Part shown: piece by piece, positions 32,560-53,624 of the stretch
Numbering within the stretch: the stretch's first letter is position 1
Layout: every line of letters begins with the position of its first letter
Assembly (NCBI GenBank): GCA_964463175.1
Contig: CAYXBJ010000178.1
Span: forward strand, 52,431-116,430
DNA length: 64,000 nt
Direction of reading: 5' to 3'
From: an uncultured bacterium
GTDB lineage: Bacteria; Methylomirabilota; Methylomirabilia; Rokubacteriales; DASRDR01
The notes under the pieces: model-generated
What the model was told of the DNA's origin: nothing
Database searches by the model: none
Seen by the model: only the letters and a program-made list of their open reading frames with translations
Translations under genes and position numbers: made by a program

Positions 32560-33132
32560 CTACTCGTTCCCGGTCGGGCTCGTCTGCTGCGAGATCCACC
32601 CCGGCAGGTTCGTCTGGAAATTCTCGGGCGGCAGGCCCCCGTAGGTCTCCACGAACTTGAGGATGGTGAACGTCCCCAGGGTCTGGAGGAACGGCACCGA
32701 CCCGCCCGACTGCGCGATCGGACCCGTCCCCGACATGCGGATGGTGATGTTGCCCGGATCGTCCCCGAGGGTGCGACCGACGATCTCGGCCTTGTTGGGC
32801 TCCACCACGATCACCCGGCCATTCGGCAAGAGGATCTCGACGCGTCCCTCGCTGCTCTCCACGAGGATGAGGTTCTTGGCCGAGGTGACCACTCGCGCCT
32901 CGCCGACGAGCGTCTTGACGACCAGCTTGCTCGCGTCCGGCTGGAAGGAGGTCTCGGCCGACGCGCCCTGTCCCAGCACCAACTCGAGACCGCCGAAGGA
33001 GGTCTTGCTAGGTCCGTTGATGATGCGCTTCTCGTCTTCCGCGGCCCAGGTGGCCGTGGCAGCAACCACGATCAGTGCGGCGAGCAATGCCGACAATGCC
33101 CTACGCGTCATATTCCCCTTCCCCCAATCCTC
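32560..33132 (-). CDS. Small secreted protein of unknown function (first gene downstream of the sigma-54 promoter)
   Basis: ATG 33130-33132 is preceded by GGGGAAGGGGAAT (strong Shine-Dalgarno). Signal peptide MTRRALSALLAALIVVAATATWA|AEDE. ~190 aa, no known motif. Confidence 0.6.
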   Translation of the reverse strand, partial: EDWGKGNMTRRALSALLAALIVVAATATWAAEDEKRIINGPSKTSFGGLELVLGQGASAETSFQPDASKLVVKTLVGEARVVTSAKNLILVESSEGRVEILLPNGRVIVVEPNKAEIVGRTLGDDPGNITIRMSGTGPIAQSGGSVPFLQTLGTFTILKFVETYGGLPPENFQTNLPGWISQQTSPTGNE

Positions 33133-33191
33133 GGGCCCATCAGGCCCGGCAGGTACAAGAACTCTATTCAAGGAAACGCGGCAACGATACA

Positions 33192-33207
33192 GCAAGGTGA
33201 GTGCCAA
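33192..33207 (-). promoter_or_regulatory. Sigma-54 (RpoN) -24/-12 promoter directing transcription toward 33132 and the downstream OM/OPX genes
   Basis: Minus-strand sequence TTGGCACTCACCTTGCT matches TGGCAC-N5-TTGC exactly (GG and GC elements, correct spacing). It lies about 60 nt upstream of ATG 33132. Confidence 0.6.
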
Positions 33208-33302
33208 TGGCAAGAGGCTCGACGATTGCCTTGGATGGCGGCCCTCTCGAAGCAAGGAACCGGCTGAAGGGGCCGCCAGTTCCAGGTCAGTTCTCTTGCG
33301 GC

Positions 33303-33313
33303 CTTCCGGGAAG
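33303..33313. promoter_or_regulatory. Inverted repeat CTTCC-G-GGAAG, candidate enhancer-binding-protein site (UAS) about 110 bp upstream of the sigma-54 promoter
   Basis: Perfect 5-bp arms with a 1-bp spacer, in the divergent intergenic region 33133-33400. Confidence 0.3.
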
Positions 33314-33334
33314 ATCAGTGCCCGTGAAATTGCC

Positions 33335-33364
33335 TTGACAGTCCCCCGGTCTGCTCCGGATAGT
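33335..33364 (+). promoter_or_regulatory. Possible sigma-70-type promoter for the NtrC-like gene
   Basis: TTGACA (33335-33340), 17-18 nt spacer, GGATAGT. Lies 37 nt upstream of ATG 33401. Confidence 0.25.
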
Positions 33365-33400
33365 GGAGAGCAGGAGAAATTCCGTAGACTTTTTCCCCTA

Positions 33401-34831
33401 ATGGACCAACCGGTCGTTCTCATAATCCACGAAGACGCGGCTGTCCGGGCCCTGCTCGGGCGGATGCTGCCCTCCTTCGGGTACACGGTCCGGACCGTGA
33501 CATCCGGGGAAGAGGCTATCGACCAGCTCACCCAGGGGGATGTCACCGTCGCCCTCCTGGACCTGGACCTCCCCGGCATGTCGGGCGCCGACACCCTCCG
33601 CGCGATCCGGGCCATGTCCCCTGCTCCCGAAGTCGTGGTCACGTCCGCCCGGGGGACCGTGACGGCTGCCGCGGATGTCGCTCGCCACGGCGCCTTCGAC
33701 TTCGTCCCGCAGCCCTTCGACCTAAAGGACTTGAACCACGTCCTCCGCACGGCCCACGACCAGGCCGTCCGGCGACGCCAGGCGCTCCACCTCGAGGCCG
33801 CGCTCAAGGCCCACGACCCGTTCCCCGAGATCGTCGGCCGGAGCACGGGGATCAAGCGAGTGCTCGCTCTCGTCAACAAAGCCGCGCGGACGCTCTCCCC
33901 CGTCCTCATCCAGGGCGAGAGCGGCACGGGCAAGGAGCTGGTGGCCCGGGCGCTGCACGCCAACAGCCCTCGCGCGAACGCGCCCCTCACAATCGTCGAT
34001 TGCGGCGCCCTCCAGGACACCCTCCTCGAGAGCGAGCTCTTCGGTCACGAGCGCGGTGCGTTCACCGGTGCCCACGGGCTCAAGCACGGGCTCTTCGAGA
34101 CCGCCAACCAGGGCACTCTCTTCCTGGACGAAATAGGCGAGATGAGCCCGGCGACCCAGGTGAAGGTCCTGCGCGCGCTCCAGTCCGGGGAGTTCCGGCG
34201 GATCGGCTCGAACCGCCACATCAAGGCCGATATCCGGGTGATCGCCGCGACGAACAAGGAACTGAAGGACGAAGTCCAGCGCGGCCGCTTCCGGGAAGAT
34301 CTCTACTACCGGATCGCGGTCATCGAGATCTACATGCCCGCGCTCCGGGAGCGGACGGATGACATCCCGCTCTTGGTCGAGCACTTCCTGCGGATCAACG
34401 CCTACGGCGGGCGGGAGCGCCTGCACGTCACGCCGGACGCCATGACGAGCCTGGCGCGGTATGCGTGGCCGGGCAACATCCGCGAGCTGCGGAATGTCAT
34501 CGAGCGGCTGTCGGTCCTCGCGGACAGCCAGGTGCTCACGGTCGACGCCCTGCCGCCGGCCATCGTGAAGGCGTCCCAGGAGCCCACCGAGTCGGCGGGG
34601 CTCCCCCGGCCGGCGGACGCCGGCCGGACCGACGGCGGGGGCGACATGACGCTCGACGATGTGGAGCGGCACCACATCATGCGGACCCTCGAGCGCCACC
34701 GCTGGAACAAGAAGCGGGTCGCGGGCATCCTTGGCATCGACACCAAGACGCTGTACAACAAGCTGCGCCGCTACGGGGTCCCCATCGGCTCACGTGGTGA
34801 CGGCGATGCGGCCGCCAGTTCCTCTGCCTAG
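33401..34831 (+). CDS. Sigma-54-dependent transcriptional activator (NtrC/Fis family; receiver + AAA+ + HTH)
   Basis: Receiver domain (ALLDLDLPGMSG). AAA+ with Walker A GESGTGKELVARALH and GAFTGA motif (ERGAFTGA), ...DIRVIAATN. C-terminal Fis-type HTH (RWNKKRVAGILGIDTKTLYNKLRRYG). Confidence 0.85.
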   Translation: MDQPVVLIIHEDAAVRALLGRMLPSFGYTVRTVTSGEEAIDQLTQGDVTVALLDLDLPGMSGADTLRAIRAMSPAPEVVVTSARGTVTAAADVARHGAFDFVPQPFDLKDLNHVLRTAHDQAVRRRQALHLEAALKAHDPFPEIVGRSTGIKRVLALVNKAARTLSPVLIQGESGTGKELVARALHANSPRANAPLTIVDCGALQDTLLESELFGHERGAFTGAHGLKHGLFETANQGTLFLDEIGEMSPATQVKVLRALQSGEFRRIGSNRHIKADIRVIAATNKELKDEVQRGRFREDLYYRIAVIEIYMPALRERTDDIPLLVEHFLRINAYGGRERLHVTPDAMTSLARYAWPGNIRELRNVIERLSVLADSQVLTVDALPPAIVKASQEPTESAGLPRPADAGRTDGGGDMTLDDVERHHIMRTLERHRWNKKRVAGILGIDTKTLYNKLRRYGVPIGSRGDGDAAASSSA

Positions 34832-34852
34832 ACCAGGAGCCTGGAGACAACC

Positions 34853-35287
34853 ATGAGCGATGATGCGGCGAGCCGTCCGCCCCGGACGGCCGCAACAGAG
34901 GAACGCGAGCGCATCCTCGTCTGCGACGACGATCCGCGCGTGAGGGAAACGATCGTCGAGGCCATGGCCGTCGAGTCGCTGGACGTGGACACCGCAGACC
35001 GCGCCGTGGACGCGATCCAGCGGATCATGCACACGAGCTACCGGGCGCTGATCCTGGACCTGAAGCTCCCCGGTCTGGGCGGGCTCGACGCCATCGCCGT
35101 CGTGAAACGGTTCGACGAGGCGCTGCCGATCATCGTGATGACGGGCCACGCCTCCTACCAGGTGGAGCAGGCGGCCCGGGCGGCCGGGATCTTTTACTAC
35201 CTCGTCAAGCCGTTCAACCTCGACGAGCTGCTGGCCGCGGTCCGCGCCGCGGTCCGGTTCCGGGAGGGTAGTCGGCGGCGCAGCTGA
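34853..35287 (+). CDS. Single-domain response regulator (CheY-like receiver)
   Basis: VCDDD, LILDLKLPGLGG, IVMTGHAS, YLVKPF; 144 aa, no output domain. Confidence 0.8.
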   Translation: MSDDAASRPPRTAATEERERILVCDDDPRVRETIVEAMAVESLDVDTADRAVDAIQRIMHTSYRALILDLKLPGLGGLDAIAVVKRFDEALPIIVMTGHASYQVEQAARAAGIFYYLVKPFNLDELLAAVRAAVRFREGSRRRS

Positions 35288-37697: not shown

Positions 37698-37722
37698 CGC
37701 GCCTCGGCCGCTCACCCGTCGG

Positions 37723-38976
37723 TCACGCGGCCGCCTTTCGACGCGCGTCGAAGGCACGGACCACCAGCGCGACGTGGGTTCCGCCCCGGGCCAGGCCGTG
37801 CACCAGCGTCGTCTCCGGCCGGCTCTCCATCGCATGCGTCACGAACCGTAGATCTCGACGGATGGGCTCGGAGAGGGGGAGCGCCGGCACGGCGGAGCCC
37901 GCCACCGCGAGCGCCGCGGCGGCCACGCGCAGGCCGCCGAGGCCGGCGTGGTCTCCCGCGAGCGGGGTGAGCGCGGTCAGGCGGGCGGGCGCCGTGCCGA
38001 GCGCGTGCGCCACCACGTCCAGCTCGCAGGCGTCGTGCGCCGGATGGCCGCTTCCCGTGAGATACGCGACCTCGACCGCATCCGACGGAACGCCGGCGGC
38101 GGCGAGGGCGCGACGGACCGTCGCCGGGTCGCGGTGTCGTGTTGCCGGAAATCCGTGGGCGGGCGCCGGGAGATTGCCCCACGCGGCCCCGGCGAGCTCG
38201 CCGTAGACCCGCGCGCCCCGGGTCAGCGCCATCTCCGCCGACTCCAGGACGACGAACGTCGCTCCCTCCCCCAGCACGGTGCCGCTCGCCTGCCGGTCGA
38301 AGGGCCGACAGCCCTCGGGACCCGGCTCCGCTCGGGACATCGTTCCGAGCCGGCTCAGCTCTCGGTAAAGGATCGGGCAGATCTCGTCGCACCCGCCGGC
38401 GAGGACCATGCTCGCCCGTCCCGCGGCGATCAACGCGGCGCCCCGGGCGACCGCCAGGTCGCCGGCCACGTCGACCGCGTTCAACGTGAGCATGGGGCCG
38501 CGCACGCCAACCGCGATCGACACCTGCGCGGCCATGGCGTTCATCACCGTGTTCGGGAAGGTGAGCGGCGAGAGGCCGAAGACCCCTCGCTGGAGAAATC
38601 CGAGCGCGAAGGCCTCCGGCGACCGGAAGTCGCCCCAGTGGGAGCCGAGGACGAGCCCGAGACCGGAGAGCTGCTCCGACTGGAGACTCGCGTCGCCCAG
38701 GGCCAAGCGGGCGGCCACGACCGCGAGCTGGCTCGCGCGCGCCAGCCGGCGCGCTTCGCTCTCCGGCAGGGACAGGACGCGATCGTCGACCTCCGCGCCC
38801 AGCCGGCTCGAGCAGTCGTCGGTCGGAAACGCCCGGATCGGCGCGACCGCGGAGCGGCCGCCGGCGAGGGCCTCGGCGACCGCGGCCCCGTTGCCGGCGC
38901 CGAACGCGCTGACGCTTCCGACGCCGGTGACGACGATGCGCGGCCGGCCGCCGCGCCGGCGCTCAGTCGCCGGCAT
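37723..38976 (-). CDS. Beta-ketoacyl synthase-like protein lacking the active-site Cys (chain-length-factor/KS-beta-like)
   Basis: Thiolase-fold KAS architecture (IVVTGVGSVSAFG..., C-terminal GGTHVALVV). The nucleophile position (canonically ACSS/ACAS) reads NAVDVAGDLA, and the His-His motifs are degenerate. Overlaps the upstream KS stop by 14 nt. Confidence 0.7.
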   Translation of the reverse strand: MPATERRRGGRPRIVVTGVGSVSAFGAGNGAAVAEALAGGRSAVAPIRAFPTDDCSSRLGAEVDDRVLSLPESEARRLARASQLAVVAARLALGDASLQSEQLSGLGLVLGSHWGDFRSPEAFALGFLQRGVFGLSPLTFPNTVMNAMAAQVSIAVGVRGPMLTLNAVDVAGDLAVARGAALIAAGRASMVLAGGCDEICPILYRELSRLGTMSRAEPGPEGCRPFDRQASGTVLGEGATFVVLESAEMALTRGARVYGELAGAAWGNLPAPAHGFPATRHRDPATVRRALAAAGVPSDAVEVAYLTGSGHPAHDACELDVVAHALGTAPARLTALTPLAGDHAGLGGLRVAAAALAVAGSAVPALPLSEPIRRDLRFVTHAMESRPETTLVHGLARGGTHVALVVRAFDARRKAAA

Positions 38977-40183
38977 CGAGGCGGCGCGGCGCGGCCACGC
39001 GCCGGAGCAGAAGGCTCAAGTTCTGACCGCCGAACCCGAAGGAGTTCGACAAGGCGTACTCGATCGAGGCCCGGCGGGCGACGTTCGGCACGCAGTCGAA
39101 CGCGACCTCGGGGTCCGGCTCCGCGAGATTGGCGGTGGGCGGAACGAGACCGTGGACGAGCGTCAGCACCGTCGCGATCGCCTCCAGCGCGCCGGCCGCC
39201 GCCATCGCGTGTCCGACCAGCGACTTGTTGGCGCTCACCAGCACCGCGTCCGGGTCGAACAGCTTGCGGAGCGCGGCGGCCTCGGTGCGATCGTTCTGGG
39301 GCGTGCCGGTCCCGTGCGCGTTGACGTATCCCACGGCGCTCGCCGGGACCCCGGCGCGGTCCAGGGCCTCCGCCATCGCCCGAACGCTCCCCTCGCCGTC
39401 GGGATGGGGCGAGGTCAGGTGGTACGCGTCGGTGCTCAGCCCGTAGCTGGAAAGCTCCGCGTAGCCGCGGGCGCCGCGCGCGCGCGCGTGGGCCTCGTCT
39501 TCCAGCACGACGAACCCGGCGCCCTCGCCGAGCGACATGCCCCGGCGATCCCGGGCGAACGGCCGGCACGGGTCGGGGTCGAGGAGCTTGAGGGCGTTGA
39601 AGCCCATGAAGCAGATGCGGGTCATCGCGTCCACGCCGCCCGCGAGCGCCACCGGCACCTCGCCGGCGGCGATCAGCTCCGCGGCCAGCCCGAGCGCCGC
39701 CCCGCCCGAGCTGCAGGCGAGGACCACGGTCTCCTTGGGGCCGGTCGTGCCGTAGCGGCGCGCGACGACGTCGGCATGGCTGAAGGGCAGGATCGTTCGG
39801 AGGGCGGTCCGGAGCTGCGGGTCGTCGGTCCCCTCGCGCTCGCGGTGCCAGAACCAGTCCTCGGCCTCCAGCATGCCGCCTCCGATGCCGCCGACCACCA
39901 CGGCCGCGGGGCGGAGCTCGCGGCGCGACAGGCCGGAGTCGCGGACGGCCTCGTCCACCGCGGCCACCGCGAAGCGGTCGGCTCGAGCCCGACGCGGCGA
40001 CACGCGGGACAGGACGGTGGCGGCGGGAACCTCGGCGCCGATCCGGGCGCGGAATCCCGTGGTGTCGAAGAGGCCGATGGGGCCGATCGTGCACCGCCCC
40101 GCGGTGAGACCATCCCAGAAGGCGTCCCGACCCGCGCCGTACGCGCTGACGACCCCCAGGCCCGTGACCAGAACCCGCTTCAC
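38963..40183 (-). CDS. Beta-ketoacyl-ACP synthase (KAS II / FabF-like), catalytically intact
   Basis: VLACSSG (Cys), NAHGTGT (His), KSLVGHAMAAAG (His), GFGGQN C-terminus. Confidence 0.85.
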   Translation of the reverse strand: MKRVLVTGLGVVSAYGAGRDAFWDGLTAGRCTIGPIGLFDTTGFRARIGAEVPAATVLSRVSPRRARADRFAVAAVDEAVRDSGLSRRELRPAAVVVGGIGGGMLEAEDWFWHREREGTDDPQLRTALRTILPFSHADVVARRYGTTGPKETVVLACSSGGAALGLAAELIAAGEVPVALAGGVDAMTRICFMGFNALKLLDPDPCRPFARDRRGMSLGEGAGFVVLEDEAHARARGARGYAELSSYGLSTDAYHLTSPHPDGEGSVRAMAEALDRAGVPASAVGYVNAHGTGTPQNDRTEAAALRKLFDPDAVLVSANKSLVGHAMAAAGALEAIATVLTLVHGLVPPTANLAEPDPEVAFDCVPNVARRASIEYALSNSFGFGGQNLSLLLRRVAAPRRLDAGD

Positions 40184-40190
40184 CTGGTGG

Positions 40191-40466
40191 TCACGCCCCC
40201 GGGGCCCGCGCGGCGACGAAGCGCACCAGGGCGCCGAACGTCCCGAAATGCGTCGCCACGTCCTCCCCTTCCTGGATCACGATGCCGAACCGCTCCTCCA
40301 GCGCGATCGACAGCTCGATGAAGTCGAGCGAGTCGAGCCCGAGCGTGCCCTCGATGCCCTTGGGGAGCGGCGTCTCGGAGGTCAGCGCGGACAGACGCGC
40401 CGGGTCGAACCGGAGTCGCTTGACGATGATGTCGCGCAACTCCCCGATGATCGCTCGCTCGTCCAT
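40191..40466 (-). CDS. Acyl carrier protein
   Basis: LGLDSLDFIELSIALEERFG (DSL phosphopantetheine site); 91 aa. Confidence 0.8.
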   Translation of the reverse strand: MDERAIIGELRDIIVKRLRFDPARLSALTSETPLPKGIEGTLGLDSLDFIELSIALEERFGIVIQEGEDVATHFGTFGALVRFVAARAPGA

Positions 40467-40484
40467 CCGTCCTCCCGTCCCTGC

Positions 40485-41444
40485 CTACCGGCCCCAGAGG
40501 ACCGCCCCGTACTCGCTTCGCCACGTGGCGGTCAAGAGCCACGGCTCCGGCGTCCCCTCGCGTCGCGTCCGGGCCAGCGCGAGGAGCGGACCCATCGCCA
40601 GCGCTTCGCCCAGCCGGGGCACCGCCGGGGGTGCGCCGATCTCCTGGAGCATCCGCGCCTCGGCGGCTCCCCGGCCGGCGCCGGCCGCGCCGCTCCACAC
40701 GAGGCGCGGTGCCTGGCCGTCGAGCGCCTGCCCGAGCACCGCGGCGACCGCACGCCGCGCCCCCGACGGCCCGGCGAGCGCGGACGCCCAGCGGAGACGG
40801 CCCGCCCCGCCCGCGTCCAGCAGAAGGCATGCGGCCCCCTCGATGAGCGGGCCGGCGTACAGCCGGCGAGCGCGGCGGAACAGGTCCCAGACCTCGTGGA
40901 ACGCCTCGACGGCGAGCACGAGCACCCGGTCCGCGCGCCCCTCGGCCAGCCAGCGCGCGGCCCACCAGAGGGCCTGCAGCGTCGCCGGAGCGCCACCCAT
41001 GAGGTTCACGTAGGCGCCACGGATCCCGAGCTCGATCGTCACCTCCCCCGGCACCGCGCTGGGTGAGGTGTACGGGAAGTGAAGCGTCGTCGAGGTCTCG
41101 TCCTCGAGGAACGCCCGGTTGGCGGCCGCGTAGCCCGTCGCGCTCACATACAGGATACCCGTTCGCGGCCCGGCCAGGTCGTCCTCGGCCAGACCGGCGT
41201 CGGCGACGGCCGCCTTGGCGGCGGCGACCGCGAACAGGCACTCGCGGGTCGCGCGGCGGAATCGATCGCCGTCCAGGACCGGCGTCGGCGCGGTCACGAG
41301 GCCACGACCGTGCTCGCCGGGTCGCGTCGACGCATCGGGGAGCCCGGGAATCCCGTCGCCCCAGCCTGTCACCACTCCGATCCCGAGGATCCGGGGCGTG
41401 GGCGGAGTCGCGAGCTCCGGTGGCGCCAGTGCGGCCGCCCTCAC
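40485..41444 (-). CDS. KS N-terminal-domain-like protein without catalytic Cys (degenerate ketosynthase half)
   Basis: ILGIGVVTGWG start. The region aligned to the KS nucleophile reads GAYVNLMGGAPATLQALWWAARWL (no Cys), then ADRVLVLAVE. Lacks the C-terminal His-His half. Overlaps the upstream KS gene (ATGA). Confidence 0.5.
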   Translation of the reverse strand: MRAAALAPPELATPPTPRILGIGVVTGWGDGIPGLPDASTRPGEHGRGLVTAPTPVLDGDRFRRATRECLFAVAAAKAAVADAGLAEDDLAGPRTGILYVSATGYAAANRAFLEDETSTTLHFPYTSPSAVPGEVTIELGIRGAYVNLMGGAPATLQALWWAARWLAEGRADRVLVLAVEAFHEVWDLFRRARRLYAGPLIEGAACLLLDAGGAGRLRWASALAGPSGARRAVAAVLGQALDGQAPRLVWSGAAGAGRGAAEARMLQEIGAPPAVPRLGEALAMGPLLALARTRREGTPEPWLLTATWRSEYGAVLWGR

Positions 41445-42685: not shown

Positions 42686-43039
42686 GCGAGGGGCCCCCGG
42701 TCATCGTGGGTGCTGAGCGGCCGATCGATCCCCGCGGGAACCGGACGGCCCGCCGACGCGACAGTCACGCCCACGGGACGCTCCCGATCGACGGAGGGCG
42801 GAGTCAGCGCGCGCGCCGGCAGCGCGAGCACGCGTCGGAGCGGCGAGAGAGGTCGAGCGGGAAAACCCCGACAGCGCCCGGGGCGCCGGCCGTGAGGGGC
42901 CCAACCCACGAGGCTGGATGGGATCCGCCGCGCCCACCCCCGCGGCATACGTACCTCATAGGCCGCTCATTGTGGGCATCGGCCATGGCGTTCGTCAACA
43001 ACCGCGACGGAGGCAGCCGGGCCCGGCGGAGCGTCCCGC

Positions 43040-44011
43040 TCAGCGATTCAGGGGCCGGCGGAGGAAGCCGAAAAGACCCTGGGGCAGGAAGATGACCATG
43101 AGGATGAACAGAACCCCCACCGGAATGAGGTAGTACTCCGTGAAGTAGCGGGACACGCCCTCCCGGAGCAGCAGGAAGAAGGCCGCCCCCGCGAACGGCC
43201 CGACCAGGGTTCCGATGCCTCCCATGACGTTGAAGATGACCACTTCCCCCGAGACCACGAAGAACACGAAGTCCGGCGCGGCGAACTTGTTCTGGAGCGC
43301 GTACAGCACGCCGGCCAGGCCGGCGACGAGCCCCGACAGCATCACCGCCACCATCTTGTACCGCTCCACGTGATACCCGATCGCCCGGGTGCGCGGCTCG
43401 TTCTCCCGGATCGACTGGAGCACCATCCCGAACGGCGATCGGGTCACGCGGCGGACGGCGAGGTACGAGAGCGTCACCACCGCCAGCACGAACCAGTGGA
43501 ACGTCGACAGCGTGAAGCGCCAGTCCCCCAGGCCGGGTATCGAGAAGGGCGGCTGTCTGAAGGTCAGGCCGTTCTCCCCGCCGGTCACCTTCGTCCAGGT
43601 GAAGATGACGACGTAGAAGATCTGGGAGAACACGAGGGTGGAGATCGCGAAGTAGATGTCGCGCAATCGCGTCGCGAAGAAGGCGACGAAGACGGCGACC
43701 GCGCCCGCCCCGACGAGACCGTAGAGCCCCGCCAGCCAGAGGCTCGGCGGCTTGACCGTGAGGAGGGCGGCGGCCGCCCCGTACATGCCGAGCCCGAAGA
43801 AGGCCGAATGGCCGAACGACACCATCCCGGCGTACCCGATGAGGATGTCCGAGGACATCGCGAGCAACCCCCAGATCAGGATCTCGGTAACGAAGCGCTG
43901 CCAGAACGGCGGCAGGACCAGCGGCGTCGCGGCGAGCGCGGCCAGCACGGCCCCGAAGCCGATCCAGTAGCCCATCGCGCCCCGATCCGATCGCGCGGTG
44001 CCCGCCGTCAT
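43040..44011 (-). CDS. Branched-chain amino acid (HAAT-family) ABC permease, LivM-like
   Basis: ATG overlaps the upstream stop (ATGA). Ten TM segments, ...SFGHSAFFGLGMY...; 323 aa. Confidence 0.8.
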   Translation of the reverse strand: MTAGTARSDRGAMGYWIGFGAVLAALAATPLVLPPFWQRFVTEILIWGLLAMSSDILIGYAGMVSFGHSAFFGLGMYGAAAALLTVKPPSLWLAGLYGLVGAGAVAVFVAFFATRLRDIYFAISTLVFSQIFYVVIFTWTKVTGGENGLTFRQPPFSIPGLGDWRFTLSTFHWFVLAVVTLSYLAVRRVTRSPFGMVLQSIRENEPRTRAIGYHVERYKMVAVMLSGLVAGLAGVLYALQNKFAAPDFVFFVVSGEVVIFNVMGGIGTLVGPFAGAAFFLLLREGVSRYFTEYYLIPVGVLFILMVIFLPQGLFGFLRRPLNR

Positions 44012-44868
44012 TTCGGGGTCGGCACGAACAGCCCGGTCGGCCGGACGAGCATGGTGAGGACCAGCACGACGAAGGACACGATCACCGCCTGCGCCGGACT
44101 GACCACGATCGCCGCGTAGGCCTCGACCAGGCTGATGAAGATCGCGGCCAGGATCGACCCGCCGAGGTTGCCCATGCCCCCGACCACGACCACGATGAAG
44201 GCGCGGAGCGTGAAGTCGAGGCCCATGGTCTGGGTGACCCCGCCGAGCGGCCCGAACAGAACCCCGCTCGCGGCGGCCATCGCCGCGCCGATCGCGAAGA
44301 CCCCGGTGTGCACTAGGGGCACCGGGATGCCCATCGCCGAGGCCATCACCCGGTCCTGGGTGGTGGCCCGGATCCAGATGCCGAATCGGCCGTGCTTCAG
44401 GAAGAGCCACAGGGCGAGGATGATCGCGCCGGACAGCCCCGCGGTCAGGATCCGGTACCACGGGTACTCGAGGTAGAAGAGCGTGAACCGGCCCGTCACC
44501 GGCTCCTGGATCTGCCGCGCCGAGGGACCCCACTGCCAGATCGCATACTTCTGGAGGACGAGCGACACGCCGAAGGTCGCGAGGATCGTCGTCAGGGGAT
44601 CGCGGCCGAGCAAGGGTCGCAGCGTCGTCGCCTGCAGGAGGGCGCCGAAGACGCCGATGATCAGCGCGGCCACCACCAGGGCGAGCCAGAAGCTGCCCGT
44701 CGCCGCGATGGTCGCGGCGCCGACGAAGCCTCCGAGCATCACGAGGTCCCCGTGAGCGAAGTTGACGACGTCCATGATCCCGAAGATGAGCGTCAGCCCC
44801 GACGCCACGAGGGCCAGGATCATTCCGTTCACGAGCCCGTTGACGGTCTGGATAAGGATCTGGTCCAC
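44008..44868 (-). CDS. HAAT-family ABC permease, LivH-like
   Basis: MDQILIQTVNGLVNGMILALVASGLTLIFGIMDVVNFAHGD... typical LivH N-terminus. Confidence 0.85.
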   Translation of the reverse strand: MDQILIQTVNGLVNGMILALVASGLTLIFGIMDVVNFAHGDLVMLGGFVGAATIAATGSFWLALVVAALIIGVFGALLQATTLRPLLGRDPLTTILATFGVSLVLQKYAIWQWGPSARQIQEPVTGRFTLFYLEYPWYRILTAGLSGAIILALWLFLKHGRFGIWIRATTQDRVMASAMGIPVPLVHTGVFAIGAAMAAASGVLFGPLGGVTQTMGLDFTLRAFIVVVVGGMGNLGGSILAAIFISLVEAYAAIVVSPAQAVIVSFVVLVLTMLVRPTGLFVPTPK

Positions 44869-44872
44869 GGAG

Positions 44873-45579
<707 letters not shown>

Positions 45580-45580
<1 letters not shown>

Positions 45581-46368
45581 CAGGTCTTGAGGTAGACCTC
45601 CTGGACGCGGGCGTTCGCCTGGATCTCGGCGGGCGTGCCCTCGGCCAGGACCTCCCCGTAGTGCAGCACGGTGATCGTGCGGGCGAGCCCCATCACGACC
45701 TCCATGTCGTGCTCGACAATGAGGATAGTGTAGTCCGCGGCGATCCGGCGGACGAGCTCCACCGTGGCCCGCGTCTCGACGGCGCTCATGCCGGCAGTCG
45801 GCTCGTCCAGGCACAGGACTCGCGGCTCGGTGGCGAGCGCGATGCCGATCTCGAGGTTGCGCTGCTCGCCGTGCGACAGGTTGGCTGCCTGCTCCTCCGC
45901 CTTCTCCTCGAGGCCGACCTCCGCCAGCACGCGCCGCGCGCGCTCCACGATGTCGGGATACGCCAGATGGTGTCGCCAGAGATTCCAGGCGTGCCGGCGG
46001 GACTGGACGGCGATGCGCACGTTCTCCAGCACGCTGGCGCCCGGGAGGATGTTGGTGATCTGGTAGCTCCGCGCGATCCCCTTGTGGGAGATCGCGTGGG
46101 GCGGGAGCCCCGTGACGTCGTCCCCGTCCAGGACGATGCGGCCGGCGGTGGGACGCAGTACCCCCGTCAGGCAGTTGAAGAGCGTGGACTTACCCGCGCC
46201 GTTGGGGCCGATGACGGCGCGGACCTCGCCGGGCACCACGGCGATCGAGACCTGGTTCAGGGCGGTCAGCCCGCCGAACTGCACGCTCAGCCCTTCGGTC
46301 CGGAGGATCGGCGGAGCGGCTCCCGGCTGGGGTCGGGACACCGCTCCGCCGGCGCGCGCGTCGGTCAC
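45580..46368 (-). CDS. HAAT-family ABC ATPase, LivG-like
   Basis: GPNGAGKSTLFN, LSHGEQRNLEIGIAL, LCLDEPTAGM. Confidence 0.85.
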
Positions 46369-46377
46369 GAGGCCGTG

Positions 46378-47682
46378 CTACGAGAACTGGCAGGCCGGTG
46401 GGACGATCGTCTTTTCCTTGGGGATCACGTCGAGGACCTTGTACTTCCCGCCGCGGAGCTCGAACAGGAGCTCCCGCGTGAACGCCTGGTGGTCCTCCTT
46501 GCGGAGGATCTTGTCGCCCTGCGGGAAGTCCTCGCCTTCCTTCATCTCCAGTCCTTCCAGGGCCTCGATCAGTTTCATCGTGTCCTTCCGCCCCTGGAAG
46601 CCCGACTTCTGCATGCCGATCCGGAGCGCGTTGACTCCCTCGAAGTTGGACTGCACGTAGCGGTCTGGCAGGGGCCCGCTCGGATCGATCTGCTTCAGGC
46701 GCGCCGCACCGTCCTCGAGGAACCGCTTGTTGTGCGGCGTGTTGAGCACGCCCTCCATCACCGGAATGTAGCGGTCGATGCCGACGAACCCCTCGCCCTT
46801 GCTGCCGATCGCCGGCAGTGCGGTCGTCACGGCGATGGCGCCATCGCCGGCCAGCCGGTACTTCTTGCTGAGCCCCAGGTCGAAGCTCTGGGTGACGAAC
46901 GCGATGCCCTGAGGTCCGAAGAAGATCCCGAACAACCCGTCGAAGTTCCCGGTGACCTTCGCCAGGAACGGCGTCATGTCCGCCGTCCCCAGGGGGATAC
47001 CGGTGGTCTCGACGACGGTGCCGCCGTTCTTCGAGATCTGCTCGGTGTAGGCATCGCGGGTCGACTGCCCCCACGCGTAGTCGGCGTACGCGATGTGCCA
47101 GCGCTTGCCGATCTTGTTGACCATGTACGGGGCGGCCGCCACCGCCTGGGCCGGCGCGAAATCGAACGGCCGGAAGGTGAAGCGGCTGCACTTGGTCGTG
47201 GTGATCGTGGTGTCGAGGCACACCGTGATCATGTTGACGAGCTTGTGCTCCTCGTAGACCGGCATGCAGGCGAGGCACACGTTGGAGAGATAGCCGCCGG
47301 CGTGGGCGTCGATCTGATCGTCGACGACGAGCTTCTCGGCCTTGCGCCGGCCGACGTCGGGTTTCGACTCGTAGTCGGCGACGAGAAGCTCGATCGGCCG
47401 GCCGTTGACGCCACCCGACTTGTTGATGCGGTCCACCGCCATCTGCACGCCGACGAGCGCGGTCTTACCGCCGGAGGCCGCGGTGCCCGAGAGGGGCTGG
47501 AGCGTCCCGATCTTGAAGGGCTTGGCCTGTCCGAACGCCTCCCGCCACGGCGCCGGCACCAGCATCGTCGCCCCGAGGGCGCCGGCCACCCCGGCGGACA
47601 GACCGAGGAACCGCCGGCGCGTCGTCTTGCCGCTCCACCACATCTCCCGCGTCCAGGGCTCGTCCTGCCAGCGCTCCGCCAT
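46378..47682 (-). CDS. Periplasmic substrate-binding protein, Leu/Ile/Val-binding (type I PBP) family, Tat-type signal
   Basis: TTRRRFLGLSAGVAGALGA signal, then FKIGTLQPLSGTAASGGK... GGAGGAAT Shine-Dalgarno upstream of ATG 47682. Confidence 0.8.
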   Translation of the reverse strand: MAERWQDEPWTREMWWSGKTTRRRFLGLSAGVAGALGATMLVPAPWREAFGQAKPFKIGTLQPLSGTAASGGKTALVGVQMAVDRINKSGGVNGRPIELLVADYESKPDVGRRKAEKLVVDDQIDAHAGGYLSNVCLACMPVYEEHKLVNMITVCLDTTITTTKCSRFTFRPFDFAPAQAVAAAPYMVNKIGKRWHIAYADYAWGQSTRDAYTEQISKNGGTVVETTGIPLGTADMTPFLAKVTGNFDGLFGIFFGPQGIAFVTQSFDLGLSKKYRLAGDGAIAVTTALPAIGSKGEGFVGIDRYIPVMEGVLNTPHNKRFLEDGAARLKQIDPSGPLPDRYVQSNFEGVNALRIGMQKSGFQGRKDTMKLIEALEGLEMKEGEDFPQGDKILRKEDHQAFTRELLFELRGGKYKVLDVIPKEKTIVPPACQFS

Positions 47683-47759
47683 CGTCAGATTCCTCCCTGT
47701 CAGGTGTCGGAAGGTCGGCTGAGAGTCGTCCGCTCCGGGTGGCCCCCTCTATACTCCAG

Positions 47760-47785
47760 CGCGAGGCCCGGGCGCAAGCCTCGCG
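47760..47785 (-). terminator. Hairpin downstream of the PaaK-like gene
   Basis: CGCGAGGC-ccgggcgcaa-GCCTCGCG: perfect 8-bp stem with a 10-nt loop, ~70 nt after the stop at 47855. Confidence 0.3.
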
Positions 47786-47854
47786 TGATCGCCGGCTCGA
47801 CGCGCTGTCGGATCGTCGCGCCGGCACCCTCGCGCGCGAAGCCGAGCGCGCGAC

Positions 47855-49078
47855 TCAGTCCCACTTCCTCCGGTCGTCGATCTTCTTCGCGTTCGGGAGA
47901 ATGGTCGCGGGCGCCACCACGCGGATGGCGCCCCGGAGCTTCATCACTTCCCGGATCGCCTCCACCATGCCGTCGCTCACCTGCTCCGCGCTCGCACCGG
48001 GCGCCAGCTCGACGTGGAACTCGAGCTCGTCCTGGTGGCCCTCGCGCGTCACCACGACCTGCCAGCGCGCCACGGCCGGGAAGCGGGCGGCGATCTCGTC
48101 GGCCTGGCGGGGATGCACGAACATGCCGCGGACCTTGGTCACCTCGTCGACGCGCCCGCGCCAGCCGAGCATGCGGGGAGCGGTGCGCCCGCACGGGCAC
48201 GGTGCCTCGGTGATCACGGACAGATCCCCGGTCCCGAACCGGATCATCGGGTAGGCGCGGTGGTTGACGGTGCAGACGATCTCGCCGGTCTCTCCGGCCG
48301 CCAGCGGGGCCCCGGTCTCGGGGTCGCAGATCTCGAGGACCACGTCCTCCATGACGTGCATGCCGTCGGCTTCCCGGCATTCGTAGGCGACGATCCCGAG
48401 ATCGGCGGTGCCGAAGCCCTGACGCGTCAGGATTCCGTGGTCGGTCTCGATGGCCCGCCGCAGCGAGGGCGGCAGCGCCTCGGCGCCGACCTGGGCGACC
48501 TCGAGCGGCAGTCGTCCCAGCCCCTTCTCGTCGGCGTGCTTCAGGATGGCGAGGAGGAACGAGGGCGTGCCGACGTAGCCGGTGACGCCGAGATCCAGGA
48601 TGGTCCGGACCTGCACCTCCACGTTGCCCGGGCCGGTCGGCACGACCGTGCAGCCGAGCAGGGCGAGCCCGCGGTCGAAGAGGTGCGCGGCCGGCGTCAG
48701 GTGGTAGAGGAACGTGTCGATGACGACGTCGCCCGGCCGAAAGCCGCCGGCGTACGCCGCGGTCTCGGTGCGCCACGGGCTCCAGTCGCGCCGCGAGAAC
48801 GGCTCGTAGATCGGTCCCGGTGACACGAACACCCAGCCCAGGTCCGCGGGCGACACGGCCGAGAAGCCCCCGAACGGCGGCGTCGCGCGCTGTGCATCCG
48901 GCATGGTCGCCTTCTTCATGACCGGGAGGCGGGCGAGGTCGGCCGGCGTCCGCACGGAAGCCGGGCGGAGACCCGCGGCCTCCAGACGCCGGCGCACGCC
49001 GGGCGCGCGCCGCCAGGCGTGGGCCACCAGCGCCCGCACCCAGGCGCCCTGATAGGCGCTGCGCGCCCGCACGCCCAT
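47855..49078 (-). CDS. Phenylacetate-CoA ligase family protein (PaaK-like / coenzyme F390 synthetase-like adenylating enzyme)
   Basis: ...FSRRDW..., TSGTTG-equivalent region, C-terminal ...KVRGMFVHPRQAD... Start uncertain (M at 49078 or GTG upstream). Confidence 0.7.
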   Translation of the reverse strand: MGVRARSAYQGAWVRALVAHAWRRAPGVRRRLEAAGLRPASVRTPADLARLPVMKKATMPDAQRATPPFGGFSAVSPADLGWVFVSPGPIYEPFSRRDWSPWRTETAAYAGGFRPGDVVIDTFLYHLTPAAHLFDRGLALLGCTVVPTGPGNVEVQVRTILDLGVTGYVGTPSFLLAILKHADEKGLGRLPLEVAQVGAEALPPSLRRAIETDHGILTRQGFGTADLGIVAYECREADGMHVMEDVVLEICDPETGAPLAAGETGEIVCTVNHRAYPMIRFGTGDLSVITEAPCPCGRTAPRMLGWRGRVDEVTKVRGMFVHPRQADEIAARFPAVARWQVVVTREGHQDELEFHVELAPGASAEQVSDGMVEAIREVMKLRGAIRVVAPATILPNAKKIDDRRKWD

Positions 49079-49187
49079 CGTCTCGCGCTTCCGGTCGTAG
49101 TAGCCGCGCAGGCGATCGGCGCGCTTCACGGCATCCACCGTCGGGAACGCGCCGAGCGAGGCGCCTCGGCCGCGCCGTGGCCTCCGC

Positions 49188-50024
49188 TCATGAGAGCCAG
49201 CGCTTGCGGCGCCGGTAGTGCTTGACGTCCCGGTAGCTCTTCCGCTGGCCGACCCCGGAGAGCCCGAGATAGAACTCCTTGACGTCCTCGTTCTCGCTGA
49301 TGGTGGACGCGTCTCCGTCCAGCACGATCCGCCCGCTCTCCATGACGTACGCGTACCGGGCAAAGCTGAGCGCCATGGCGGCGTTCTGCTCGGCGAGCAG
49401 GACGGCGACCTGCTCCTCCCGGTTCAGACGGCTCACGATCTCGAAAATCTCCTGGACCAGCATCGGGGCCAGCCCCATGGACGGCTCGTCGAGGAGCATG
49501 AGCCGCGGGCGCGCCATCAGCGCCCGCCCGATCGCCAGCATCTGCTGCTCGCCGCCTGACACGTATCCCGCTCGCACCGTCCGGCGGTCCTTCAGGCGGG
49601 GGAAGTATCGATACACGCGCTGGATGTCCTCGTCGATCGCCCGCCGGTCGCGCCGCGTGTACGCACCGGTCAGGAGGTTCTCCTCGACCGTGAGGTGCTC
49701 GAAGATGTGCCGTCCCTCCATCACCTGCACGACGCCGCGCCTCACGATGTCAGCAGGATCGCGGGTCTGGATGGGAGACCCCTGGAACTCGATCGCGCCC
49801 TTGGTCACCTCGCCCCGCTCCGTGCGAAGCAGCCCCGAGACAGCCTTGAGGGTCGTGCTCTTGCCTGCCCCGTTGGCCCCGAGCAGGGCGACGATGCTTC
49901 CCTCGGGCACTTGGAGGGAGACCCCTTTGAGCACGAGGATCACGTGGTCATAGATGACCTCGATGTTGTTGACGGTCAGCAGCGCCTTCCCGTTCTCGCT
50001 CATGAGTCTTCGCCGGAGCGCCAT
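49188..50024 (-). CDS. HAAT-family ABC ATPase (LivF-like) of the second system
   Basis: GANGAGKSTTLK, VSGGEQQMLAIGRAL, LLDEPSMGL. Confidence 0.8.
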   Translation of the reverse strand: MALRRRLMSENGKALLTVNNIEVIYDHVILVLKGVSLQVPEGSIVALLGANGAGKSTTLKAVSGLLRTERGEVTKGAIEFQGSPIQTRDPADIVRRGVVQVMEGRHIFEHLTVEENLLTGAYTRRDRRAIDEDIQRVYRYFPRLKDRRTVRAGYVSGGEQQMLAIGRALMARPRLMLLDEPSMGLAPMLVQEIFEIVSRLNREEQVAVLLAEQNAAMALSFARYAYVMESGRIVLDGDASTISENEDVKEFYLGLSGVGQRKSYRDVKHYRRRKRWLS

Positions 50025-50070
50025 CGGCCCGCGAGCCCCGCAGGGCCCGCGGGCCGGTAGCCCACCGCGG

Positions 50071-51384
50071 CTAGCTCTTCGGGCAGTCCCGCGGCGTGTA
50101 GTTGAGCTTCTTGCCCTCCTCGACCGCCGCCTCCTCGATCTTCGGTCGTACCACGTCGCGCATGGGCTCGATCCAGTCGGAGACGATGTTCCACTTCTTT
50201 CCGTCCCACTGCTGGACCTGCGCCATGCCGTTGCCCTCGTGGTTCTCGCAGGTGACCTTGAGGGGTCGGATGAGCCCCTTCATGCCGAGCTGCTCGAGGC
50301 GCTGATCGGTGATGTTCAGATTCTCGAAGCCCCAGCGGATCTCCTCATTGGTCAGCTGCTTGTTACCGTACTTGGCCATCGCCGTCCGGATGGCCTCGAC
50401 GTTCAGCATCGCGTTGACGATCATGCGGTTGTACAGCACCTCGCCGATGCCATCGCGCCGGCCGGCACCCTTCCCCTGCTCGTAGAGGTAGTGGTTGATG
50501 TCCTGGTGAACCTTGAAGCCGGCGCCCGGGGCGGTGAACGTCATCGCCTTGTAGCCCTTGGCGCCATCGCCGGCGGGGATGACGTCGATCTCGGTACCCG
50601 TCCACCAGTTACCGACCACGTGGTCCATCTTCATCCCGTGGGAGGCCGCCTCCTTCACCGCCACCTGGTTCATGACCCCCCAGCCGGAGATGTAGATCCA
50701 GTCCGGATTGATCCGGCGAACCTGGAGCCAGGTCGCCCCCTGCTCCTGCCCCGGATGATCGACGGGAAGCAGCGTGAGGTCGAATCCGTACTGCTTGGAC
50801 AAAAGCTCGAGGGTCGGATTCGCCTCCTTGCCATACGGGCTGTTGTGGAAGATGTGGACCAGCTTCTTGCCCTTCAGCTTGTCCATCCCGCCTTCCTGCT
50901 GACCCACGTACTTGACGAAGGCCGACGCCTGGCTCCAGTAGGTCATCGGGAAGTTGAAGACCCACGGAAACCAGCGGCCGTCGGCCGCTGCTGTCATGCC
51001 GTAGCCCATCGAGTGGACGACGACCTTGTCGACCGCCGCCTTGGGGATGAGCTGGTAGGTGATGCCCGTGCTGTACGGATTGACGAGCACCGGCCCCTTC
51101 CCCTTCAGGCGCTCGTAGCACTCCACACCCTGTTTCGTGTCGTACTGCGTCTCGCACTCCTCGACCACGATCTTGAACCCGTTGATGCCTCCGTCCCGCT
51201 CGTTCACCAGCGCGAAGTAATCGAGGGCCGCGTTGGCGATCGGGGTGCCGCTCGGCGCGTACGGGCCGGTGCGGTAGACGAGGAGCGGGATGAAAAACGT
51301 CTTGTCCTGGGCGGGCGCCAGCGACCACGCCCCGAGCGCGATGACCGCCGTCAGGACCACGCTCAACATGACACGCAGCTTCAT
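50071..51384 (-). CDS. Periplasmic substrate-binding protein (type I PBP, Liv-like family)
   Basis: Signal peptide MKLRVMLSVVLTAVIALGAWSLAPAQD; 437 aa. Confidence 0.8.
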   Translation of the reverse strand: MKLRVMLSVVLTAVIALGAWSLAPAQDKTFFIPLLVYRTGPYAPSGTPIANAALDYFALVNERDGGINGFKIVVEECETQYDTKQGVECYERLKGKGPVLVNPYSTGITYQLIPKAAVDKVVVHSMGYGMTAAADGRWFPWVFNFPMTYWSQASAFVKYVGQQEGGMDKLKGKKLVHIFHNSPYGKEANPTLELLSKQYGFDLTLLPVDHPGQEQGATWLQVRRINPDWIYISGWGVMNQVAVKEAASHGMKMDHVVGNWWTGTEIDVIPAGDGAKGYKAMTFTAPGAGFKVHQDINHYLYEQGKGAGRRDGIGEVLYNRMIVNAMLNVEAIRTAMAKYGNKQLTNEEIRWGFENLNITDQRLEQLGMKGLIRPLKVTCENHEGNGMAQVQQWDGKKWNIVSDWIEPMRDVVRPKIEEAAVEEGKKLNYTPRDCPKS

Positions 51385-51451
51385 GGTGACCTCCTTGTCG
51401 GTGGTGGTGAGCTACGGACGTCCTCCGAATCCTCCATCGCGCCAACGGCCT

Positions 51452-52528
51452 TCAGTACGGGAAGGGCCACATTCGGAGCTTCTCCTTGGTGACCTGCCAC
51501 AGGCGCGCCAGCCCGCTCGGCTCGACGATCAGGAAGAAGACGATGAGCCCGCCGAACACCATCAGCTCGATTTCCTTCTGGAGCGCCGTCGGCATCTTGA
51601 CACCCAGCCAGTGGGGCACGTTCGTGAGCAGGATCGGGATCAGGATGATGAAGGCGGCCCCCAGGAACGAGCCGAGGATCGAGCCCAGTCCTCCGATGAT
51701 GATCATGAACAGCACGAGGAACGACTGGTTGATGTCGAAGGCCAGCGTCTCCGCGCTACCGAGGAACAGGAACACGAGCTCGGCCCCGGCCACGCCGCAG
51801 TAGAACGAGCTGATTCCGAACGCGAGCAGCTTCGTCCGGAGCGGCCGCACGCCGATGATTTCGGCGGCGATGTCGCGGTCGCGGATCGCCATCCACGCCC
51901 GGCCGATCCGGCCGCGCACGAGATTCTTGGCGACCAGGGCGAATACCGCGACGAAGGCCAGGCCCACGAGGTAACGCGCCGAGGCCGTCGAGTTGGGGCC
52001 GGTCAGCAGCACCCCGAACATGGCCCGGTTCGGAGCGGTGATCGTGCCGGACGACGCGTAGTTCACGAACCACGGCACCTTGTTGAAGAGCCAGAGGAGG
52101 AAGAACTGCGCGGCCAGCGTGGCGACCGCCAGGTAGAAGCCTTTGATCCGGAGGCTCGGGAGTCCGAAGATCAGGCCGACCCCGGCCGCGATGACCCCCG
52201 CGGCGAGGAAAACGAGGACGATGCTCGCGCGGGGAAACGACGTGGTCAGCTTGAAGGCCGAGTACGCGCCCACCGCCATGAACCCGCCGGTGCCGAGCGA
52301 CAGCTGCCCGGCGTAGCCGGTGAGGAGGTTCAGCCCGATGGCCGCCAACGCGTAGACCAGGAACGGGATGAGGATCGCCTGGAGCCAGTAGTCGTTCGCG
52401 ACGAGCGGCGGGACGAGCGCGGCGGCCACCAGGACCAGCCCGGCCACCCATCGATCCTGGACGATCGGGAAGATCGCCTGGTCGCTCGCATAGCTGGTCT
52501 TGAACTGGCCGGCCTCGCGGTAGATCAC
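51452..52528 (-). CDS. HAAT-family ABC permease, LivM-like
   Basis: ...LTGYAGQLSLGTGGFMAVGAY...; 358 aa, polytopic. Confidence 0.8.
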   Translation of the reverse strand: MIYREAGQFKTSYASDQAIFPIVQDRWVAGLVLVAAALVPPLVANDYWLQAILIPFLVYALAAIGLNLLTGYAGQLSLGTGGFMAVGAYSAFKLTTSFPRASIVLVFLAAGVIAAGVGLIFGLPSLRIKGFYLAVATLAAQFFLLWLFNKVPWFVNYASSGTITAPNRAMFGVLLTGPNSTASARYLVGLAFVAVFALVAKNLVRGRIGRAWMAIRDRDIAAEIIGVRPLRTKLLAFGISSFYCGVAGAELVFLFLGSAETLAFDINQSFLVLFMIIIGGLGSILGSFLGAAFIILIPILLTNVPHWLGVKMPTALQKEIELMVFGGLIVFFLIVEPSGLARLWQVTKEKLRMWPFPY

Positions 52529-52601
52529 GCGCTCACCGCTCCTTCATGGGGTCCGCGCCCGTCGCGCGACCGAGCTCGGCCCGGGGCCGGTCGCTGGCGC
52601 C

Positions 52602-53536: not shown

Positions 53537-53624
53537 GGCGCTCAGCTCCCGCCCGCTGCCCCGGGCCCCATCGCCTCAGCGGGCCCGCGGTCGGACACAG
53601 CGCGTCGTCCCCGCCCCGGGCGCA

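Follow-up and report, generated by a model that had tools for sequence, protein, structure and literature searches.

Heterodimers of a ketosynthase (KS) and a non-catalytic homologue, the chain-length factor (CLF), determine how long a chain grows in type II polyketide systems and in some fatty-acid systems; the evolution of the non-catalytic subunit, and what it governs beyond the aromatic polyketides, are questions under active study. The window analyzed here, a stretch of 64,000 nucleotides from contig CAYXBJ010000178.1 of an uncultured Rokubacteriales bacterium, carries a locus that juxtaposes three grades of one fold: two intact ketosynthases (KS1 and KS2), a full-length dead homologue (the CLF-like protein) and a trimmed dead one (the compact protein), together with a single acyl carrier protein (ACP). 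We consider it probable that the two cysteine-less proteins are non-catalytic, CLF-like ('KS-beta') partners of the ketosynthases encoded upstream of them, forming two distinct heterodimers that share the one ACP. The class of mechanism is already known and the gain is incremental, not conceptual; the approximately 70 natural orthologue sets of the locus nevertheless offer a ready series for following how a ketosynthase becomes a partner subunit.

Dead partners of both sizes have been described. In aryl-polyene (APE) clusters, ApeO pairs with ApeC (PDB 6QSP), a protein roughly half as large as its ketosynthase (PMC8358021). In the AmcF-AmcG pair of cispentacin and coronafacic acid biosynthesis the short partner is insoluble without its ketosynthase, and FabD and FabI are borrowed from primary metabolism (PMC10698177). 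With ApeC (PMC8358021) and AmcG (PMC10698177) thus established, the remark in a previous sequence-only reading of this DNA that a stand-alone half-KS partner is uncommon does not hold. Anammox bacteria provide published cases of dead FabF partners that have kept their full length (bioRxiv 10.64898/2026.05.19.726425), where amxFabF2 and amxFabFmut of ladderane cluster I are each inactive alone and active as a heterodimer; residues 110-140 of amxFabFmut, a helix-loop-helix, are disordered in the protein alone and ordered in the heterodimer, lining the substrate tunnel (bioRxiv 10.64898/2026.05.19.726425).

Intact and dead ketosynthases at the locus

The seven genes from KS2 through the ATPase of an adjoining ATP-binding cassette (ABC) transporter are arranged head to tail on the minus strand. 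Each dead ketosynthase gene follows an intact one with translational overlap, as had been read from the sequence: the KS2 stop and the GTG start of the compact gene share GTGA (a 4-nt overlap), and the ATG of the CLF-like gene sits 14 nt inside the 3' end of KS1 (ATG...TGA). Orthologues were extracted from 80 related loci, and the catalytic columns were counted over distinct sequences. The core is covered completely in 66 Rokubacteria loci; KS2, the compact gene and KS1 occur in 66/66 of them, the CLF-like gene in 65/66 and the ACP gene in 64/66, always in the order KS2, compact, ACP, KS1, CLF-like, and the adjacency of dead to live gene holds in 65-66 of the 66.

KS1 and KS2 keep the Cys/His/His/Lys residues in 100% of their orthologues (75/75 and 71/71 distinct sequences, respectively). 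Against the housekeeping FabF model TIGR03150 they score 361.9 and 331.1 bits and do not reach its equivalog cut-off of 493.75, which would class them as FabF-like, yet not as housekeeping FabF. The top PDB sequence match of KS2 is 9s5h_B, and matches near the top for both ketosynthases include 9s5h_B and Iga11. For KS2, KS1 and the CLF-like protein alike, chains B and C of 9s5h rank near the top of the sequence matches; this entry, whose code was found in no relevant paper, may be the anammox complex.

The CLF-like protein matches the Thermus FabF end to end (its residues 13-405 align with residues 3-404 of 1j3n) and scores 102.9 bits against PF00109, far above the 26.3 bits (cut-off 25) obtained with PF13723 (Ketoacyl-synt_2, ApeC-type). 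The alignment to 1j3n places Asp169, within NAVDVAG, in the cysteine column and Gly275 and Thr307 in the two histidine columns, in agreement with the earlier description of a missing nucleophile and degenerate histidine motifs. Cysteine occurs in none of the 47 orthologues at this column, which holds Thr in 28, Asp in 9, Gly in 4 and Leu, Ser, Ala, Arg or Val in the others. Motifs of the N-terminal half (GLS...FP.TVMN.M, AGG.D and GEGA...LE) are strongly conserved, and beyond residue 252, that is, across the whole C-terminal half, no position is at least 95% conserved, a pattern that fits relaxed constraint on a former catalytic half.

Residues 37-182 of the compact protein align to FabF and to the act KS (1j3n, 1tqy), with Ala152 (MGGAPAT) in the cysteine column. 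An AlphaFold2 monomer model of the protein (33 homologues; predicted local distance difference test, pLDDT, 81.9; predicted template-modeling score, pTM, 0.86) puts this residue at the nucleophile elbow, where strand 145-149 meets helix 152-167. Across 37 orthologues the column is filled by Ala (21), Gly (8) or Pro (8), and never by Cys. A register error masking a cysteine is excluded by the two alignments, the position at the elbow and the orthologue counts; the loss of the nucleophile first read from the letters of this protein is therefore upheld, no register and no orthologue of either dead protein having a cysteine at that place.

The same reading had described the compact protein as the N-terminal thiolase half only. 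Its Pfam and NCBIfam matches are indeed confined to residues 54-182, in the N-terminal KS domain, but the model contains additional beta/alpha elements across residues 216-317, the second half being trimmed and not absent, and the family alignment keeps remnants of C-terminal KS motifs (GEALAxGPL and LLTATWRxEYGALLW). A Foldseek search of the PDB with the model returned chain-length factors at the top, namely Iga12 (6kxe_B), AntE (6smo) and the act CLF (1tqy_B), with template-modeling (TM) scores of ~0.72, and ~285 of the 319 residues superpose on these complete proteins. As modeled, the compact protein is a trimmed two-half fold of about three-quarter size from which the His-bearing loops have been lost.

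Most of the other Rokubacteria clades have shorter orthologues (about 255-300 aa, ~275 aa being typical) that lack window residues ~221-270, where 63-79% of the sequences are gapped; the extent of trimming differs among family members. Motifs at residues 59-69 and 123-151 are invariant family-wide. In the clade of the window the most densely invariant segment is formed by residues 106-135 (including N109, R110, F112, D115, E116 and TLHFPYT), which align to the 110-140 helix-loop-helix of FabF and make up the only long conserved stretch with a pLDDT below 50 in the monomer model, as would be expected of an interface segment that acquires its fold upon binding the partner.

A genuine and lineage-restricted family of compact proteins

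More than 100 homologues of the compact protein, 255-323 aa long, were recovered. Compared with a related lineage, L090, whose compact protein is 94% identical, the ratio of nonsynonymous to synonymous substitution rates (dN/dS) is 0.15 for the compact gene, 0.17 for KS2, 0.23 for the ACP and 0.11 for KS1. An origin of the short open reading frame (ORF) as a frameshifted fragment of a full-length ketosynthase, which the sequence-only reading had named as the finding that would overturn it, is excluded by the length kept in this many homologues, by the start of the ACP gene only 18 nt downstream and by the dN/dS of the compact gene.

The family is almost wholly restricted to Rokubacteria/Methylomirabilota bins and is small, with 24 representatives (50% clustering) at E<1e-30 among 1.8 billion proteins. 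NCBI names the protein 'beta-ketoacyl synthase N-terminal-like domain-containing protein', and no curated model specific to the family gives it a name. In HHalign comparisons the compact family matches the CLF-like family with 96% probability, KS1 with 35% and KS2 with 3%; because its profile is nearest to the CLF-like family and not to the live ketosynthases, the two dead partners may share a dead ancestor and a single origin.

Distant relatives outside the family are 32-35% identical and 330-360 aa long, and their contigs are short, bar one that carries a KS and a PF00109-only pair. On this unrelated metagenome contig (L094, 639-2848), the gene for a 385-aa KS overlaps by 4 nt with the next one, which encodes a 351-aa PF00109-only protein, 32% identical to the compact partner; no further polyketide synthase or fatty-acid synthase genes lie downstream. 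Pairs of a live and a short dead ketosynthase may be commoner than annotation shows.

A Rokubacteria-wide cassette and its reduced form in the window

Fifty-one of the related loci span the whole neighborhood (hereafter complete relatives), and the counts of accessory genes refer to them. A DUF8321/8322 protein with the lipobox LFVAAC is encoded in 50/51, an LpxL/lysophospholipid-type acyltransferase in 33/51, a family 2 glycosyltransferase (GT2) like polyprenyl-phosphate sugar synthases in 51/51, and a homologue of CmlS-like flavin halogenases/monooxygenases in 42/51. The exporter is represented by its permease in 51/51 and its ATPase in 50/51. The lipobox lipoprotein at the head of the cassette (e.g. 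L001, 6971-7810) recalls the ApeA lipoprotein that heads aryl-polyene clusters. In four relatives the permease and ATPase genes are separated by the gene of a TcuA-like flavoprotein, which scores 603 bits with the tricarballylate dehydrogenase model (L002, 10313-11809; L004, 16251-17738; L018; L020).

Rokubacteria are an abundant uncultured soil phylum, and virtually every one sampled carries the cassette, which points to a core envelope lipid and not to an occasional secondary metabolite. A literature search on this cassette in Rokubacteria found nothing relevant. The novel elements are a family of compact partners specific to the lineage and a cassette, undescribed so far, that extends across the phylum and contains two live/dead KS pairs.

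Searches with tblastn found no match to the acyltransferase, GT2, lipoprotein or halogenase-like genes anywhere in the 64-kb window. By blastn, the spacer that precedes KS2 (Table 1) matches positions 6889-6960 and 7688-7852 of L007/L008, and the end of the CLF-like gene directly abuts the permease gene where relatives carry the GT2 gene. The lineage of the window has lost the lipoprotein, acyltransferase and GT2 genes by clean deletions, keeping the condensing and ACP genes and the exporter. This reduced arrangement recurs on 11 metagenome contigs, the four that were retrieved being from different samples, and it is also found in L090, where the 355-bp scar is 91% identical in nucleotides. 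An assembly artefact is excluded by the 11 contigs, the different samples and the 94%-identical lineage L090; because the arrangement recurs on these contigs and L090 shares the scar, the reduced form is natural and predates the split between the window and L090. To judge from the substitution ratios, KS2, the compact gene, the ACP and KS1 have been under purifying selection since the deletions.

Two probable heterodimers on one carrier protein

Three features by which KS-beta subunits are broadly recognized are found in both dead proteins: a KS-type thiolase fold, loss of the Cys and His-His residues, and an adjoining, co-translated intact ketosynthase. A fourth, a stable 1:1 heterodimer in which the partner shapes the acyl tunnel of the KS, is predicted, with the low monomer confidence of the conserved residues 106-135 as indirect support. 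The expected pairs are KS2/compact and KS1/CLF-like, both of which would use the one ACP whose gene lies between theirs. In either heterodimer the live KS alone would transfer the acyl group and catalyze decarboxylative condensation; the dead subunit would complete the dimer interface, its helix-loop-helix closing and shaping the acyl tunnel, and would thereby set the chain lengths or intermediates that its KS accepts. A role in setting chain length or unsaturation, suggested in the sequence-only reading, is hypothetical. The two pairs may act in relay, e.g. in early versus late elongation.

Domain searches of the 64-kb window found no genes for a ketoreductase (KR), dehydratase (DH), enoyl reductase (ER), malonyl transferase (AT) or thioesterase (TE), and cyclases/aromatases and a C-9 ketoreductase are absent both from the 64 kb and from the cassettes of the relatives. 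Because the cassette has neither reductive enzymes nor a malonyl transferase, the KR, DH, ER and AT steps would presumably be borrowed from housekeeping fatty-acid synthesis. The product would most likely be an envelope lipid of fatty-acyl or polyketide-like nature, and the adjoining MacB/LolD-type ABC transporter would export it; by analogy, the lipoprotein, acyltransferase, GT2 and exporter of the relatives suggest that an acyl chain is placed on an envelope glycolipid or lipoprotein and then exported.

Of the two KS/CLF-like heterodimers proposed previously, the underlying observations have stood, namely the loss of the cysteine and triad, the coupling and adjacency of the genes and the CLF-like fold of the compact protein, and the pairing itself is a probable reading of them. 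Several points weigh against it: the assignment of each dead protein to a live one draws on gene order and analogy; the compact profile is nearer to the CLF-like family than to either KS, which makes a dead-dead dimer possible; the cassette has no reductive or release enzymes; and neither dead protein falls convincingly within a curated CLF-type family, the PF13723 score of the long one being marginal and the AmcG cut-off not being reached.

More tentatively, the locus could represent an undescribed envelope-lipid pathway of Rokubacteria/Methylomirabilota that combines a relay of two heterodimers on one ACP with borrowed reduction, in which the compact family (255-323 aa) would be intermediate between full-length CLFs and the half-size ApeC and AmcG, and the reduced core plus exporter would still be selected. 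If the compact family is such an intermediate, it would document how the catalytic half is worn away step by step after a KS copy has become a structural partner; if the core and exporter have remained under selection after the deletions, the product would be useful without lipid anchoring.

Comparison with described systems and alternative readings

The closest analogue of the KS1/CLF-like pair is amxFabF2-amxFabFmut, in which a FabF-like live KS is joined to a dead subunit that is likewise a full-length FabF-like protein with all three triad residues replaced, the live and dead genes adjoin, and the context is of fatty-acid type and not that of an aromatic polyketide synthase. It differs in that the dead gene lies upstream there and downstream of the live KS here, in the Val or Thr found at the Cys position as against Asp, Thr or Gly here, and in the radical-SAM genes, which this cassette lacks.

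The KS2/compact pair resembles ApeO-ApeC in joining a live KS to a shortened Cys-less homologue whose second thiolase half is reduced, with a second KS in the cluster. The lipoprotein, LpxL/lysophospholipid-type acyltransferase, GT2 and dedicated exporter of the relatives also correspond to that part of APE clusters which serves anchoring and export (PMC8253772, gene table). Unlike ApeC, the compact protein has no PF13723 match (E<=0.01) and no detectable sequence relation to it, and KS1 and KS2 are nearer to FabF than to ApeO. A PDB profile search with the compact-family alignment did not recover ApeC (6QSP chain B) or AmcG-like chains, and 6QSP chain B is not among the Foldseek matches listed for the compact model. 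The APE core (acyl-ACP synthetase, KR, two dehydratases, thioesterase and two ACPs) is absent from the window and from the 51 complete relatives; the cassette has one ACP instead of two and no KR, DH, acyl-ACP synthetase or thioesterase, its second KS has a full-length dead partner of its own, and its exporter is of MacB/LolD type and not of the resistance-nodulation-division (RND) type. Membership of the compact protein in the ApeC family is excluded by the missing PF13723 match, the lack of APE core context and the absence from the sequence and fold match lists.

The fold matches Iga11-Iga12 (ishigamide; 6KXD/6KXE) and AntD-AntE (6SMO) are just 12-20% identical, and their CLFs are 30-90 residues longer; unlike the cassette described here, their clusters encode KR/DH or cyclases of their own and make polyenes or aromatics.

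AmcG, like the compact protein, is a shortened KS partner without the motifs, and NCBIfam models of the cispentacin set give weak matches at this locus: AmcG with 18.5 bits for the compact protein, AmcF with 250-256 bits for KS1 and KS2, and AmcB, the top-scoring ACP model for the cassette ACP, with 37 bits. The compact protein might then be a partner of the cyclization-factor type (like AmcG/Cfa4), with KS2 performing one elongation and ring closure. We regard this as unlikely. All of these scores lie below the curated cut-offs (AmcG, 80; AmcF, 325; AmcB, 80), the loader and tailoring genes of the AmcF-AmcG pathways are missing, no AmcH-type adenylating loader, AmcE decarboxylase or aminotransferase being conserved in the cassette, and the compact protein, with its extensive superposition on CLFs, is twice the size of the 157-aa AmcG. 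Membership in the AmcG family (NF058659) is excluded by the distance from its equivalog cut-off and by the lack of a conserved AmcH-type neighbor.

In a second reading the two dead proteins form a pair of their own, or each works by itself, serving as a scaffold or binding acyl groups or the ACP, and KS1 and KS2 are left as ordinary homodimers or as a KS1-KS2 heterodimer. The HHalign proximity of the compact to the CLF-like family speaks in its favor, as does the ability of the anammox dead FabF to crystallise as a homodimer; each dead gene, however, is coupled to a different live KS gene and never to the other dead gene, the gene order is invariant across genomes, and the characterised cases (ApeO-ApeC, AmcF-AmcG and the anammox pair) all join a dead with a live subunit. 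Dead-dead pairing is therefore improbable, and the live/dead heterodimers remain the preferred arrangement.

Aromatic type II CLFs and KSQ loading domains decarboxylate malonyl-ACP, and the anammox heterodimer does so as well, though via its live subunit; the dead proteins could on these grounds be KSQ/CLF-type decarboxylases that prime the pathway. Gln, however, is found at the Cys position in no orthologue, the CLF-like protein has lost both histidines and the compact protein has its His-bearing loops deleted, which makes a priming role very unlikely. The class of aromatic type II CLFs (act-type KS-beta) is likewise excluded, since neither the long nor the compact family has Gln at this position and there is no cyclase context. 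That the dead copies are decaying, functionless paralogues and the short one a gene fragment, as the poorly conserved C-terminal half of the CLF-like protein and the deletions in the window cassette might hint, is hardly credible given open frames of conserved length in ~70 species-level genomes, invariant motifs and the low dN/dS of the compact gene after the deletions.

Locus layout and flanking genes

The features of the locus are listed in Table 1. The window has a GC content of 65-75%, and its nearest relatives are metagenome-assembled genomes labelled Candidatus Rokubacteria / Methylomirabilota.

Table 1. Features of the ketosynthase cassette and adjoining exporter, with coordinates in the window.
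Feature	Coordinates	Strand	Remarks
KS2, FabF-like ketosynthase, 414 aa	41441..42685	-	PF00109 + PF02801; Cys169/His267/His302/Lys334, motif TACASG
Compact Cys-less KS-like partner (putative), 319 aa	40485..41444	-	Ala152 at nucleophile position; without His-His loops
Acyl carrier protein (ACP), 91 aa	40191..40466	-	PF00550; GLDSLD phosphopantetheine site
KS1, FabF-like ketosynthase, 406 aa	38963..40183	-	Cys157/His255/His290/Lys320, motif ACSSG
CLF-like dead ketosynthase, full-length, 417 aa	37723..38976	-	Cys->Asp169, His->Gly275, His->Thr307
MacB/FtsX-type permease, 396 aa	36507..37697	-	PF12704 + PF02687; start 25 nt past CLF-like stop
LolD/MacB-type ABC ATPase, 232 aa	35804..36502	-	PF00005; LolD model 200 bits, DevA 170 bits, both below cut-off
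Intergenic deletion scar, 355 bp	42686..43040	-	blastn remnants of the lipoprotein (DUF8321/8322) gene and of its junction with the LpxL-like acyltransferase gene, both ahead of KS2 in relatives
CLF-like/permease junction	37698..37722	-	site of a ~0.9-kb GT2 glycosyltransferase gene in 51/51 complete relatives

Upstream of the cassette lie Liv-type ABC importers with AMP-forming ligases, and downstream a small phosphatase, response regulators and an exopolysaccharide export locus. In the upstream region (43040-57304) two Liv-type (branched-chain amino-acid-like) ABC uptake systems stand in succession. An AMP-forming ligase accompanies each of them, PaaK-like at 47855-49363 and long at 54479-57304, and a coenzyme A-transferase comes next. 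Synteny of the first Liv-type set with the KS cassette is confined to the closest relatives. A 147-aa ORF at 53132-53575 matches only the first third of the Liv-type permease domain and may be a truncated or frameshifted permease gene.

The large exopolysaccharide locus (~3300-32500) encodes two Wza-like SLBB export proteins, a Wzz/GNVR chain-length protein, a ParA-like kinase and a Wzy_C-TPR protein, together with several family 4 glycosyltransferases (GT4), a priming sugar transferase, a DegT aminotransferase, a UDP-glucose dehydrogenase and a porin (BBP2_2) characteristic of PEP-CTERM systems. The stretch 32657-35287 encodes a divergent sigma-54 activator and a response regulator.

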